Source of the DNA: Minisyncoccota bacterium
GTDB taxonomy: Bacteria > Patescibacteriota > Microgenomatia > UBA1400 > PJMF01
Direction: 5' to 3'
NCBI GenBank assembly: GCA_018646985.1
Contig: JABGTR010000002.1
Span: 1 to 63,416, forward strand
DNA: 63,416 nt
The number at the start of each line of letters is the position of its first letter. The stretch's first letter is position 1. The notes beneath the pieces were generated by a model that was given only the letters and a program-made list of their open reading frames with translations, was not told the DNA's origin and did not search any database. Shown piece by piece: positions 666 to 5,642 of this stretch. The translations under genes were made by a program, and so were the position numbers.

Positions 666-1865
666 ATGAAAAATTACAATTATCCAGATAAAAATGGCCA
701 ATTTGGTCAGTATGGCGGGCGTGTAGTGCCTCCAGCACTTGAGGAAGTTTTAAAAGAAGTGGAGGCAGCTTACCTAGGGTTACGAGATGATCCTCAGTTT
801 ATTGAGGAGTTAAATCATCTTCACCAGACTTATACCGGGCGACCAAACCAGCTTTATCTAGCTGATTCACTAACCAAGAAAGCTGGTGGGGCCAAGATCT
901 ATCTGAAGCGAGAAGATCTCAATCATACTGGGGCTCACAAGATAAATAACACTCTAGGACAAGCTCTAGTAGCTAAAAAACTAGGTAAGACCAAGCTAAT
1001 TGCTGAAACTGGTGCTGGCCAACATGGGGTGGCAGTCGCCACTGTGGCTGCTAAGTTTGGGATGGAGTGTGATATTTATATGGGGCAACGAGATGTGACC
1101 AATCAAAGCATGAATGTTTACCGGATGAAACTTCTGGGAGCTAATGTAATCTCGGTTACCACAGGGCAGAAAACACTCAAGGATGCAATTGATGTAGCTC
1201 TAGGAGCATTTATTGCTGAGCCAGATACTTACTACATGCTGGGTTCGGCGGTTGGCCCCCATCCTTACCCGATGATGGTGCGAGACTTCCAATCCGTGAT
1301 TGGTAAAGAAGCTAGAGAGCAAATCCTCAAAGCTGAAGGAAAACTACCAGACTATGCAGTAGCTTGTGTGGGAGGCGGGTCAAATGCTCTAGGATTATTT
1401 ACAGACTTCATTCCCGATGAAGGAGTCAAATTAATAGCTGTAGAACCTGCTGGTAAGGGAGCAAATACCAACCAACATGGATTAGCTTTAGGTAAAGGTA
1501 AACCAGGGGTAATTCATGGCTTTGAATGTTTAGTGCTTCAAGATGATCAGGGAGAAATAGTTGAGTCTTATTCAGCTGCTTCTGGTCTAGATTATCCAGG
1601 TGTAGGGCCAGAGTTTTGTTTGCTCAAAGACCTGGGTCGAGTCGAAATAGTAGGGGTGACGGATGATGAAGCGGTCAAAGCTTTCCAGCTCCTTTCTAAG
1701 ACTGAGGGGACTATTCCCGCTTTAGAGTCGGCTCACGCAATTGCCTATGCAGTCGAGCTAGCTAGCAAACTCAAGAAGGATCAGACGATTATAGTTAATC
1801 TCTCTGGTCGGGGTGATAAAGACGTCAAGAATGTCTATCAAAATCTAATTAAAAAGGATCAATAA
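666..1865 (+). CDS. trpB: Tryptophan synthase beta subunit (TrpB1 type)
   Basis: REDLNHTGAHKINN (PLP lysine), AETGAGQHG, VGGGSNA, LDYPGVGP and NLSGRGDKD motifs; 399 aa with a TrpB1-like N-terminus (GQFGQYGG). Confidence 0.95.
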   Translation: MKNYNYPDKNGQFGQYGGRVVPPALEEVLKEVEAAYLGLRDDPQFIEELNHLHQTYTGRPNQLYLADSLTKKAGGAKIYLKREDLNHTGAHKINNTLGQALVAKKLGKTKLIAETGAGQHGVAVATVAAKFGMECDIYMGQRDVTNQSMNVYRMKLLGANVISVTTGQKTLKDAIDVALGAFIAEPDTYYMLGSAVGPHPYPMMVRDFQSVIGKEAREQILKAEGKLPDYAVACVGGGSNALGLFTDFIPDEGVKLIAVEPAGKGANTNQHGLALGKGKPGVIHGFECLVLQDDQGEIVESYSAASGLDYPGVGPEFCLLKDLGRVEIVGVTDDEAVKAFQLLSKTEGTIPALESAHAIAYAVELASKLKKDQTIIVNLSGRGDKDVKNVYQNLIKKDQ

Positions 1866-1878
1866 TCACCCAAAATTT

Positions 1879-1909
1879 TGGTGGTGACAACTTACCCCTG
1901 TCACCACCA
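1879..1909. other. Perfect 11-bp inverted repeat between trpB and trpS (mRNA hairpin or weak terminator)
   Basis: TGGTGGTGACA(1879-1889)-9 nt-TGTCACCACCA(1899-1909); no clear U-tract; a TATAAT follows at 1920-1925. Confidence 0.6.
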
Positions 1910-1952
1910 GATATTTAGTTATAATAAATAAGGATTTAAAAGGAAAAATTTT

Positions 1953-2942
1953 ATGAAAAAGAAATTAATATTTTCTGGTATCAGAGCTACAGGCAGGTTG
2001 CACCTAGGTAATTATCTGGGTATGGTCAAGGGAATGCTGCAGCTTCAGGAGGATGAGAAATATCAGCTGTTGTTTTCAGTGGTTGATATTCATGCTGTAA
2101 CTACACCTTACGACAAAGACAAACTCAGCCAGCGTACTTATGATGTAGTCTTGGATTATTTGGCATCTGGACTTGATCCTGAAAAAAGCCTTTTACTGGT
2201 TCAGTCTAAAGTGGGTGACCTGCATGCTGAGTTGGCTTTCTATTTTTCGACTGTCATGACAGTAGCTAGGATGCAGCACTTACCAACTTATAAAGAGAAG
2301 GCTCAACAACACCCAGACAATGTGACGATGGCGTTATTGAATTATCCAGTTCTAATGGCGGCTGATATTTTGGCTTATCATTCAGAATTAGTACCAGTAG
2401 GGATTGATCAAGAACCACATTTGGAAGTAACCAGGGAAGTAGCTCGCAAGATGAATAGTTTATATGGAATGAATTTTCCTGAACCAAAACGATTTGCAAC
2501 TGAAGGTGGTAAAGTGCCGTCTCTGGCCGGTGAAGGTAAGATGAGTAAGTCTATAGAGGGAAGTTATATTAACCTGACTGATGATTTGGAGACAATTAAA
2601 AAGAGGTTGGCTGGTGCGCCCACAGATTCTGGAAAGGGCGAAAGCGTTCCCACCAGTGGTGGAGTGGCTAACTTACTTCAATTTGTAGAACTTTTTATGG
2701 GTGAAGATAAAAGAAAAGGATATGAAGCGATGTACGTCGGTGAAGGCATCCGTTACGGAGATCTTAAAAATGAGTTGGCTGAAGCGATTTATGCTGAGCT
2801 AAAGCCAATTCAAAAAAGACGAGCAGAGCTGGAGAAAAATCCTGAGTATGTAGAGCAAGTTATTGAAGAAGGGGCTAAAAAAGCACGCCAAATCGCCAGC
2901 GCTACCTTAGCAGAAGTTAAAGAAAAAATGGGGCTAAAATAA
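1953..2942 (+). CDS. trpS: Tryptophanyl-tRNA synthetase
   Basis: SGIRATGRLHLGNY (HIGH-like), LMAADIL, VPVGIDQEPHLE and KMSKS motifs. Confidence 0.95.
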   Translation: MKKKLIFSGIRATGRLHLGNYLGMVKGMLQLQEDEKYQLLFSVVDIHAVTTPYDKDKLSQRTYDVVLDYLASGLDPEKSLLLVQSKVGDLHAELAFYFSTVMTVARMQHLPTYKEKAQQHPDNVTMALLNYPVLMAADILAYHSELVPVGIDQEPHLEVTREVARKMNSLYGMNFPEPKRFATEGGKVPSLAGEGKMSKSIEGSYINLTDDLETIKKRLAGAPTDSGKGESVPTSGGVANLLQFVELFMGEDKRKGYEAMYVGEGIRYGDLKNELAEAIYAELKPIQKRRAELEKNPEYVEQVIEEGAKKARQIASATLAEVKEKMGLK

Positions 2943-2943
2943 T

Positions 2944-3267
2944 ATGATTAATATTGATGATTTTGCCAAGGTAGAAATTAAAGTGGGTTTAGTAACTCAA
3001 GCTGAAGATGTAGAAAAAAGTAATAAGCTGATTCGCCTGCAAGTAGATTTTGGCAAAGAAGAACTTCGGACTATTTTTACTGGCGTGAGAACCTTTGGTT
3101 ACGCCCCTGAAGATTTCACAGACAAACAATTTCTATTTGTAACTAATCTTGAACCTCGCAAAATGATGGGTGAAGAATCTCAAGGCATGATTTTGGCTGT
3201 AGATGGGCAAGACAAGCCATTTTTTGTGACTGCAGCGGGTTTACCACTCGGAGCAAAAGTTAGTTAA
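2944..3267 (+). CDS. OB-fold tRNA-binding protein (MetRS C-terminal / Trbp111 / CsaA family)
   Basis: INIDDFAKVEIKVG, KLIRLQVDFG and NLEPRKMMGEESQGMILA signatures. Confidence 0.85.
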   Translation: MINIDDFAKVEIKVGLVTQAEDVEKSNKLIRLQVDFGKEELRTIFTGVRTFGYAPEDFTDKQFLFVTNLEPRKMMGEESQGMILAVDGQDKPFFVTAAGLPLGAKVS

Positions 3268-3291: not shown

Positions 3292-5208
3292 ATGACAGAT
3301 AAAAAGAAACCTACTAAAAAAACTCCAGCCCCCAAAAAGGGTAAAAAAAACCAAGTTCCTATTAAAAAAGTAGAGCTAAAAGTTGATTTAAATAAATTTT
3401 TTAGTAAAGGGTTTATTTATCTCATTCTTGGTCTGCTCTTCGTCCCATTTTTGTTCCAGTTATTTTCTGGTGGTTCTAGTGAGCAGATCTCCATTAGTCA
3501 GTTAGTACGTGACATCCGTGAAGAAAAAGTAGAAAAACTAGATGTAGCCGGTCAGCAATTACGAGCTCATTATATTGAAGATGATCAAGTCAGAGTCGCT
3601 CGCAAAGAAGAGGGTCAGCAAGCTTTACAAGTTTTGACTGCCTCTGGGATTGATTTGGCAGAAGTAAATTTGGAGATCGAGAATCTTTCTTTTGGTGACA
3701 TGTTATGGGAATTAGTATTGAATTTATTACCAATTTTATTAATGGTAGTTTTCTTCTTATTTATTTTCCGTCAGGCACGAGGAGCTCAGAATGGTTTGAT
3801 GAATTTTGGTAACAGCAAGGCTAAAGTTTTTGTTAAAGGTAAGCAGAATACAAGCTTCAAAAGCGTAGGTGGAATGGATGAAGCCAAAGCTGAACTCGAA
3901 GAAATTGTTGACTTTTTGAAGAATCCTAAAAAATATCAAAAAGTAGGAGCTCGTACTCCTAAGGGAGTATTGTTGATTGGTCCAGCCGGGACTGGAAAAA
4001 CATTATTGGCACGAGCCGTAGCTGGTGAGGCTAAAGTTCAGTTCTTATCTATTGCTGGGAGTGAGTTTATGGAGATGTTAGTCGGCGTTGGTGCTTCCCG
4101 GGCCAGAGACCTCTTTAAGACTGCCAAAAAACTATCTCCATCAATCATTTTTATTGATGAAATTGACGCCATTGGTAGGCAAAGAAGTCGCGGTGGTGTG
4201 GGAGGAAATGATGAGCGAGAGCAAACTTTAAATCAAATTTTGGTAGAAATGGATGGTTTTACTGCTAATGATAATGTGATTGTAATGGCCGCGACTAATA
4301 GGGGTGATTTATTAGACCCTGCTTTAGTTCGTCCTGGTCGCTTTGATCGTCGAGTTACAGTTCGTCTCCCAGATCTAGAAGAAAGAGCACACATCATCAA
4401 GATCCATGCTAAGAATAAGCCTTTCACTAAAGACTTAAACTGGGATAGAGTCGCTAAACGTACTGTTGGTTTTTCTGGTGCAGACCTAGAAAACATGCTC
4501 AATGAAGCGGCCATTGCGGTGGCTCGTGACATTCGCAAGGAAATTAAATTTACTGACATCGAAGAGGCTTCACTAAAGGTTAAGTTAGGCCGAAGTAAAA
4601 AACGACTTCATGATGAATATGAGCGAAAGCTGACTGCTTATCACGAGGCTGGACATGCAGTGATTGCTCATGTCTCTGCGCATGCAGATCCAGTTCACCG
4701 AGTTTCGATCGTTTCCAGAGGCATGGCTCTGGGATACACTTTAACTCCCCCAGAAAAAGACAAGGTCCAGGTGACTCGCTCTGAGTTGCTTCAAGATATG
4801 ACGGTTATGTTTGGTGGTCGAGCTGCTGAAGAATTAATTTTCAATGAGCTTACTGCTGGAGCTAGTAGTGATATTAAGCGGGCTACTCAGATTGCTAGAT
4901 CAATGGTGGTTGAATATGGGATGAGTGATTTAGGGCCAATGAACTTTAGTCCCCAATACGATGCCGATAGCTATGGTGGTATCTACGGAAAGCCATCTGA
5001 AGTCTCTGATAGTGTTCAAGCTAAGGTTGATGGAGAAATTTCTAAGTTAATTAAAAATGCAGAAACTGAGTCAGTTAAGTTATTAAATAAATATCGAAAA
5101 CAGTTAGATATTATCGCTCTGAAACTCTTAGAAATAGAGACTTTAGATGCTGATGAATTTACCCAATTAATGGGGATGAAAAAAGCTAAGCCTGCTATAC
5201 TTAAGTAA
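3292..5208 (+). CDS. ftsH: ATP-dependent zinc metalloprotease FtsH
   Basis: Two N-terminal TM segments, GPAGTGKT Walker A, IIFIDEID Walker B, ATNR/RPGRFDR second region of homology, HEAGH. Confidence 0.97.
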
Positions 5209-5642
5209 TGCAGCTGCCCAAAATTCGCCGACATCTCCTTAAGCAACGTAAATTTCGTCAGCTACTCCTTTCTCTAGCTGTAGTGGCTATTTTTTTGGGT
5301 TTATTAGTAGTTTCTGTAGAAAAAGATAGAGGAAATATTAGAACTTTTCCTGAAGGCTTATGGTGGGCAGCAACCACAATTACAGCCGTTGGTTATGGTG
5401 ACTATGTTCCAGTCACGGGTCCGGGGCGAGTCATTGGGGTAGCTTTGGAAGTGGTGGGTGTAGTTATGTTTGGTTTGTTGATTGCAATCATTAATACTTC
5501 CATGAATAGGGGTCAGGAGGAGTATTATTGGAAAAAACTATTCAAGAGACTGGATAGTGTTGAGTCTGAGCTAGACACTTTAAAAAAACATACCGATTTT
5601 GTAGTCAAAAAAGAGAGCGATGCTGATACACTAAGCAAATGA
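5208..5642 (+). CDS. Two-TM potassium channel pore protein (KcsA-like)
   Basis: TM - WWAATTITAVGYGDYVP pore - TM architecture; the filter reads TAVGYG rather than TTVGYG. Confidence 0.85.
   Translation: MQLPKIRRHLLKQRKFRQLLLSLAVVAIFLGLLVVSVEKDRGNIRTFPEGLWWAATTITAVGYGDYVPVTGPGRVIGVALEVVGVVMFGLLIAIINTSMNRGQEEYYWKKLFKRLDSVESELDTLKKHTDFVVKKESDADTLSK

Follow-up and report, generated by a model that had tools for sequence, protein, structure and literature searches.

A lone TrpB1-type tryptophan synthase beta chain beside trpS in a reduced bacterial genome: a predicted TrpA-independent route from indole to tryptophan behind a tryptophan-codon leader

What use a bacterium may have for a tryptophan synthase beta chain when it has no alpha chain is the question raised by a locus near the start of contig JABGTR010000002.1 of a Minisyncoccota bacterium (GenBank assembly GCA_018646985.1), a member of the Candidate Phyla Radiation (CPR), in which trpB stands directly upstream of trpS with no trpA beside it. 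The stretch of DNA analysed, called the window here, comprises 63,416 nt; it is contig 30 of the 45 that make up an assembly of 881 kb, 97.6% complete and with 1.3% contamination. Indole salvage was judged the best reading of this lone TrpB. The product of positions 666-1865 is probably an enzyme that works without a partner, joining indole to L-serine to form tryptophan, and that is expressed with trpS under a leader sensing tryptophan. An earlier note made from these letters had proposed the same indole and serine route, and the results given here support it by reasoning from sequence and not by assay. The two genes concerned are as follows.

666-1865, + strand: trpB, TrpB1-type, clade A of the tree given below, not linked to TrpA; 399 aa, with the pyridoxal 5'-phosphate (PLP) lysine K92 encoded at 939-941.
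1953-2942, + strand: trpS, tryptophan--tRNA ligase; 329 aa, 292 bits on TIGR00233 (cut-off 177).

The absence of trpA and of other trp genes from the neighbourhood, seen in the earlier note, holds for the entire 881-kb genome. Searches for trpA (PF00290), indole-3-glycerol phosphate synthase (IGPS, PF00218), phosphoribosylanthranilate isomerase (PRAI, PF00697), trpD (TIGR01245) and the chorismate-binding trpE (PF00425) returned nothing in this 97.6%-complete genome, and all 14 control genomes were positive each time. The note had suggested a genome-wide search for trpA and trpEGDFC; in the assembly trpA, trpC, trpF, trpD and trpE are absent, and no full pathway lies elsewhere in it. Whole-assembly searching found a single trpB and no tryptophanase-type lyase. 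Serine hydroxymethyltransferase (SHMT) is present, so serine is within reach. In each of three congeners searched, trpB was present and trpA absent.

The trpB gene is intact, with its PLP lysine and catalytic motifs, as had been claimed. In a profile search its product scored 571.4 bits on TIGR00263 (cut-off 392.45) and 188.7 bits on the TrpB2-type model TIGR01415, below the cut-off of 518.85, and is therefore assigned to the TrpB1 type. The best solved relative is the reconstructed TrpB of the last bacterial common ancestor (LBCA TrpB, PDB 5ey5; 545 bits, E 9e-163). With E. coli TrpB numbering as the ruler, the full catalytic residue set is present: H86, K87 (K92 in the window protein), E109, T110, Q114, H115, N145, K167, G233 to N236 (the phosphate loop GGGSN), D305, E350, S377, G378 and R379. 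The TrpB1-type bD305 is thus kept, and the whole set is invariant in every clade, clades A and B included.

The phylogeny that the earlier note had proposed, with CPR and other TrpBs, was built by maximum likelihood from 76 sequences (IQ-TREE, LG+G4, 1000 ultrafast bootstraps) and placed the window TrpB in a fully supported CPR clade. Supports are given as ultrafast bootstrap/SH-aLRT.

Clade A: the window and 12 CPR rows; 100/100.
Clade B: CPR lone TrpBs with Fermentibacteria, Gracilibacteria and three Proteobacteria; 100/99.
Clades A and B as sister groups: 100/97.
Super-clade A+B+S, S being four non-CPR rows (two Halanaerobiales, Oligoflexia, Alicyclobacillus): 100/98.

Every CPR TrpB with a TrpA fell on the canonical side of the tree, and quicker trees concurred. 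Neither trpA nor any other trp gene was found within 3.5 kb in any of the 32 super-clade loci; trpA was adjacent in 57 of 80 named loci. In four non-CPR genomes a canonical trpB adjoins trpA and a super-clade copy lies elsewhere. Because these four and one genome of the window's own family (G081) carry the super-clade copy besides canonical trpBA, the clade A TrpB is regarded as a paralogue and not as an operon remnant; it would be a distinct TrpA-independent type, not an ordinary TrpB left over from a trp operon. Constraining clade A to group with the family's own TrpA-paired TrpBs cost 160 log-likelihood units (approximately unbiased (AU) test, p 1.4e-7), so a recent loss of trpA from the family's own trpBA was ruled out. 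The closest 120 clusters in a collection of 5.8 billion proteins were 65-100% identical to the window TrpB, and the named ones among them were all CPR (Patescibacteria, Pacebacteria, Microgenomates, CPR3, Shapirobacteria, Woesebacteria). Among the matches listed, a scan of contigs by single protein gave only canonical TrpBs at 54-61% identity, which were used as named outgroups; the best matches in a search of representatives at 50% clustering were 56%-identical fusion proteins, uninformative on origin. One Oligoflexia metagenome-assembled genome (L083; Bdellovibrionota, 4.9 Mb) has a super-clade TrpB only and no TrpA, and may be another lone-TrpB indole salvager, in a large genome.

The distribution of TrpA within the family bears on whether clade A and B enzymes need it. 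Among 101 genomes of the same family (window genome included), TrpB scored above cut-off in 24 and TrpA in six, always adjoining trpB; these counts, like those for the phylum, are samples of related genomes and so do not represent independent events. Not one of the 18 family genomes with a clade A or B TrpB only has trpA. Five of the trpA carriers (G077, G055, G069, G082 and G015; loci L019-L023) have trpBA only, with a canonical-type TrpB, no IGPS, and TrpAs that keep aE49, aD60, aD56, aP57 and aG181. The sixth, G081, is the only one of the 101 with IGPS, in an apparent full trpE-G-D-CF-B-A operon, and also carries a clade-A trpB beside trpS. That clade A and B enzymes can do without TrpA is argued most strongly, if indirectly, by a contrast inside this family: canonical TrpB always comes with TrpA, even where the substrate of TrpA is not made, whereas the genomes with a lone A or B enzyme have no trpA. 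In a sample of 400 further genomes of the phylum, TrpB was found in 25 and TrpA in 22, and TrpB was clearly without TrpA in only three. The G081 operon itself (locus L018, G081:C50:9045-20193, followed by additional ORFs) lies in a 1.0-Mb CPR genome and is an unusual biosynthetic capacity for the group; it is a candidate that might reflect contamination.

With so patchy a gene (24 of 101 family genomes) in the reduced genomes of CPR, trpB might be a relic, the last gene of a decayed trp operon with no present role; two genomes, G005 and G099, seem to have lost trpB and yet keep its leader, and G057 has an in-frame TAA at codon 13 of the gene. Such a relic is nevertheless very improbable. Purifying selection on trpB is strong, at about 0.05 in the ratio of nonsynonymous to synonymous rates (dN/dS; 0.048 and 0.054 against two congeners, 0.04-0.07 in two other close pairs, pairs involving L036 being left out), clade A is distinct from operon-type TrpBs and is kept across many genera (at least 120 database clusters with one signature), and the dedicated regulatory leader is conserved. 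The G057 copy (locus L025, G057:C31) is otherwise an intact clade-A trpB, with dN/dS of 0.038 against the G081 copy, and its stop codon is either a very recent knock-out or a sequencing error. The trpB of L040 (G035:C16) has a 37-residue repeat-like insert with a run of N just before the PALESAHA motif, which is probably an assembly artefact.

The catalytic residues of the lineage are conserved and its TrpA-facing parts are altered. Across 92 canonical rows, 159 columns reach 85% conservation or more, and clade A has switched residue at 12 of them. At bR141, R is found in 91 of 92 canonical rows, N in 13 of 13 clade A rows and K in 15 of 15 clade B rows. Three switches lie on helix H6 (N171 to D, R175 to G or other, W177 to F or Y), and the remainder are E19 to P, A257 to P, A269 to L, Q293 to E, S301 to A, A302 to S, H313 to L or F, and one ambiguous loop column. 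Helix H6 (165-181) thus holds 3 of the 12 switched columns against 9 of the 159 conserved ones (Fisher p 0.02). The window TrpB reads N, D, G and F at bR141, bN171, bR175 and bW177, positions 86-99% conserved in the canonical rows, and the signature is common to all 120 nearest database clusters. A shared deletion at E. coli P366, also raised by the column scan, was judged an alignment artefact; lone and TrpA-paired sequences of the family are equal in length there. The H6 helix of the COMM domain (b102-189) contacts TrpA loops 2 and 6, and the R141-D305 salt bridge stabilises the closed active state, R141A or D305A shifting the enzyme toward an inactive state (PMC9512447, review). On this pattern the lineage would have retained the chemistry of TrpB1 and rewritten its communication with TrpA, at the R141-D305 latch and at the TrpA-facing residues of H6. 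In the literature searched, no description was found of TrpA-less TrpB1 lineages in CPR, nor of the R141/H6 signature.

The same substitutions could be read in two other ways. The change of R141 to N and those in H6 might mark an enzyme with a new function, using another nucleophile, deaminating serine or making a tryptophan analogue. Mutants of Salmonella at bR141 or bD305 do alter substrate and reaction specificity (PMC9512447), as many as 12 of 159 otherwise conserved columns have switched, and free-living bacteria hold the super-clade copy on top of canonical trpBA; we consider a new function unlikely, as every residue that serves PLP chemistry or the indole step (E109, K87, D305) is invariant and the genomic context described below points the same way. 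Alternatively, the enzyme might still need an activating partner, unrecognised and non-homologous to TrpA, supplied by the bacterium or by a host. Most extant TrpB1 enzymes are TrpA-dependent (PMC8576815), H6 has not been randomised but carries a new motif that is itself conserved (D-V/S-A-L/F-x-A-F/Y), and clade A has F without exception at position 282, all of which would suit such a partner. This is less likely still, since no conserved extra gene accompanies trpB: the CPR neighbours are Xer, trpS, the tRNA-binding protein and ftsH, which are also the neighbours where trpB is absent, and those of the non-CPR copies are unrelated. The flanks of five non-CPR super-clade copies have no common theme (ketopantoate reductase, sulfotransferase, acyl-AMP ligase, GntR regulator, protease) and give no clue to function. 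A partner-free TrpB is accordingly preferred here, and its regulation can be considered from the following elements.

450-479, + strand: sigma-70-like promoter TTGACA-18-TACAAT, 11 of 12 consensus matches, predicted from the match alone in a consensus scan.
490-555, + strand: leader ORF of 21 codons; codons 11-12 (520-525) are a tandem Trp pair, and Trp is encoded a third time at 541-543.
580-605, + strand: intrinsic terminator (hairpin 580-600), with a 7-bp GC-rich stem, a 7-nt loop and a U run.
1877-1911, + strand: 13-bp hairpin in the trpB/trpS gap, without a U run; -21.4 kcal/mol, z -3.4.
1898-1925, + strand: promoter-like site for trpS, CTGTCA-16-TATAAT, with the -10 box at 1920-1925.

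Expression of trpB only under starvation, as the earlier note supposed, is suggested by the tandem-Trp leader (490-555) and the terminator (580-600) behind it, and by the recurrence of this arrangement. ORFs of 6-45 codons with tandem Trp codons (WW) were present within 400 nt 5' of trpB in 19 of 21 CPR loci, a set with members of both clades and the two trpBA pairs that fill this slot; the mean in shuffled sequences was 0.25 (maximum 2), and in the reverse complement the count was 0. In most relatives a GC hairpin and T run follow the WW leader. In minimum free energy (MFE) folds of the window leader the WW codons are followed directly by a hairpin, and the terminator forms as well. An Rfam scan of 16 loci gave tRNA as the sole RNA family at the gathering score, and neither a T-box nor Trp_leader (RF00513) was found.

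The TATAAT at 1920-1925 and the Shine-Dalgarno sequence that had been assigned to trpS were both located as described, the latter being of AAGGA type about 8 nt 5' of the ATG, and all four members of the genus keep the -10 box. Compensatory changes have preserved the 13-bp hairpin before it within the genus, and this hairpin may be a weak terminator or may stabilise the mRNA. It is absent in genera where trpS starts 11-38 nt after trpB, a gap that implies one transcript. Some relatives without trpB have a WW leader directly 5' of trpS, namely G005 and G099 (whose congeners have trpB) and three members of a genus lacking trpB. From these it follows that the leader and trpS are the unit, in which trpB (A, B, or canonical with trpA) is an optional insert, and this explains why a lone trpB is found beside trpS. 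Leader, optional trpB and trpS would so form one tryptophan-starvation unit. This context counts against a TrpB of new function, the gene lying behind a leader specific for Trp codons and being linked to trpS.

Two conserved neighbours flank the unit, of which the recombinase is not part of the module.

1-447, + strand: Xer-type tyrosine recombinase, 3' part, truncated at the contig start; PF00589 E 1.8e-25, with XerA/C/D-like NCBIfam matches.
2944-3267, + strand: free-standing tRNA-binding domain protein (Trbp111/CsaA/MetG-C-like); PF01588 E 1.8e-22.

The order Xer, trpB, trpS, tRNA-binding protein, ftsH, (K+ channel), exonuclease was found in about 15 family loci from many genera. Across these the Xer protein is 75-97% identical and syntenic with or without trpB; where family genomes lack trpB, Xer lies directly 5' of trpS, at a distance of anything between about 33 nt and a few hundred nt. 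In G077 and G015 a trpB-trpA pair fills the same slot, and this occupation of the clade-A slot by canonical pairs suggests functional equivalence, again against a changed reaction. The earlier note had taken the recombinase as a possible mark of recent acquisition, and here it did not stand. An island of trpB, with or without trpS, brought in by the recombinase would fit the position of that gene (219 nt 5' of trpB), the GC content of trpB (0.443, the 98.6th percentile) and the three TrpB types (A, B, and canonical with TrpA) that occupy the slot in different family members. It is largely refuted by the other data and retains hardly any probability. The recombinase adjoins trpS also in relatives without trpB and is therefore a fixed neighbour and not an acquisition marker, with no joint presence and absence of the two genes; trpB composition is not atypical by GC3 (0.347, like its neighbours) or by 4-mer distance (74th percentile); and four genus members share the arrangement with trpB identity (86-89%) within the range of the neighbouring genes (72-98%). 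What the three TrpB types do indicate is that the slot has been exchanged over evolutionary time.

The proposed mechanism is as follows. When charged tRNA-Trp is scarce, ribosomes would stall at the Trp codons at 520-525, termination at 580-600 would be relieved, and trpB would be transcribed. TrpB would then condense indole with L-serine to tryptophan without TrpA, the serine being obtainable from glycine by means of the SHMT that the genome encodes. In many relatives trpS and the tRNA-binding protein gene would be co-transcribed with trpB, and in the genus of the window trpS would also have its own promoter for basal expression.

Several points weigh against this reading. Of the extant TrpB1 enzymes that have been characterised, the majority catalyse poorly when TrpA is missing (PMC8576815). 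A set of six residues termed Res6 gives LBCA TrpB, and plTrpB of Pelodictyon luteolum, their stand-alone activity (PMC11917138), and the window TrpB has only one of them: at E36, E42, T53, S187, A279 and M280 (LBCA numbering) it reads Q, N, N, S, F and E, matching at the equivalent of S187 alone, so that Res6 is not the route it uses. At the interface position that corresponds to LBCA A279, clade A has F throughout. Mutation of bR141 in Salmonella destabilises the active closed state (PMC9512447), and the N at position 141 therefore needs compensation. The MFE folds of the window leader lack an antiterminator. A grouping of clade A with all CPR canonical TrpBs was not rejected (27.5 log-likelihood units, AU p 0.18). 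Finally, the supply of indole by the host or the surrounding community is conjecture, though indole crosses membranes by free diffusion and could reach the cell in this way.

A wider reading takes clades A and B and their non-CPR relatives as a natural and ancient TrpA-free lineage of TrpB1. Its independence would have been reached by an undescribed route, in which the R141 latch became N or K, helix H6 was rewritten and F was placed at position 282; free-living bacteria would have kept the enzyme as a second, indole-scavenging synthase, and many CPR as their only route to tryptophan, under a leader shared with trpS and with indole traded with their hosts. We regard this larger proposal as plausible, at slightly less than an even chance.

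The first 6.6 kb of the window hold seven genes, all on the + strand. After the tRNA-binding protein gene come ftsH, a small K+ channel gene and a 5'-3' exonuclease gene. The K+ channel gene begins on the last base of the ftsH stop codon (5208; window 5205-5211) and the exonuclease gene overlaps it by 4 nt (5639-5642), and this tightly packed string is probably co-translated. The tRNA-binding protein gene starts 2 nt after the trpS stop, an adjacency kept in most family loci, and its product may be a trans-acting tRNA-binding cofactor of TrpRS.

A TrpRS match was found in 99 of the 101 family genomes (a tally that includes G047, which supports no other statement here), and trpS is syntenic with trpB or with a WW leader across the family. 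Two TrpRS types occupy the same slot after trpB or Xer, one 60-89% and the other 34-45% identical to the window TrpRS (L019, L026, L031, L037 and L040 versus others), which looks like in-place displacement of an essential aminoacyl-tRNA synthetase. Two TrpRS matches each were found in G006, G015 and G081. In many family members (G039, G028, G076, G054, G095 and others) the TrpRS match is split between residues 1-231 and residues 234-328, both lying in a single open frame of about 355-390 aa, which suggests an insertion of about 25 residues in a subgroup.

If the reading is true, the locus is a concrete and regulated exception to the view of CPR that they import every amino acid, and it predicts indole as a specific cross-fed metabolite. 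TrpB is a workhorse for the synthesis of non-canonical amino acids, and both ancestral reconstruction and directed evolution have been applied at length to free it from TrpA (PMC8576815, PMC11917138). Hundreds of natural TrpB1 sequences seem to be on offer from TrpA-less genomes, and they share compact, conserved changes at the allosteric latch and the alpha interface, and one bacterial family holds the control group, TrpA being kept whenever TrpB is of canonical type. The residues that free TrpB from TrpA would thereby become addressable with natural sequences. Classic attenuation would be put to unusual use here, with a Trp-codon leader controlling trpS and trpB an optional insertion.

Among known systems, the window leader resembles enterobacterial trpL (RF00513), since in both a short ORF carries tandem Trp codons and an intrinsic terminator stands between it and a trp gene. 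It differs in preceding a lone trpB and trpS and not trpEDCBA, in having no Rfam match at the gathering threshold, and in lying directly before trpS in some relatives without trpB. In Firmicutes, trpS is controlled by a T-box. The likeness would be that here too a Trp-tRNA ligase is placed under a signal reporting the charging of tRNA-Trp. Salvage of exogenous indole to tryptophan through TrpB in a community setting is described for gut bifidobacteria, which are not reduced CPR genomes (PMC11085991).

Three more systems may be compared. The TrpB2 enzymes are the classic stand-alone, high-affinity indole scavengers (PMC1854888; Hettwer & Sterner 2002 via PMC11917138). Like the window protein they are TrpB homologues without a tight TrpA complex, with a proposed role in indole rescue, and are often a second copy beside TrpB1; the window TrpB belongs to another family, by its score on TIGR01415 and its bD305. 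With plTrpB and LBCA TrpB, whose activity alone is attributed to Res6 (PMC11917138, PMC8576815), the window TrpB shares the TrpB1 type and the question of TrpA independence. Both of these have a TrpA partner, as does the "naturally occurring standalone TrpB" of 2025, drawn from a KEGG set of 6,373 sequences (PMC11917138), whereas the window TrpB comes from a genome without TrpA; LBCA TrpB is canonical at R141 and helix H6, where the window TrpB is altered. Genital strains of Chlamydia trachomatis make tryptophan from exogenous indole by TrpBA under tryptophan starvation (PMC8376405, PMC4042155) and keep a catalytically impaired TrpA as an allosteric activator of TrpB (PMC8376405). The window organism is likewise host-dependent and without the upstream pathway, and from its genes would likewise use indole, but it has no trpA at all and its TrpB is altered at the TrpA-facing residues. 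An arrangement like that of Chlamydia is found in the five trpBA-only relatives from its own family, in which TrpA is not degenerate and its catalytic residues are intact.

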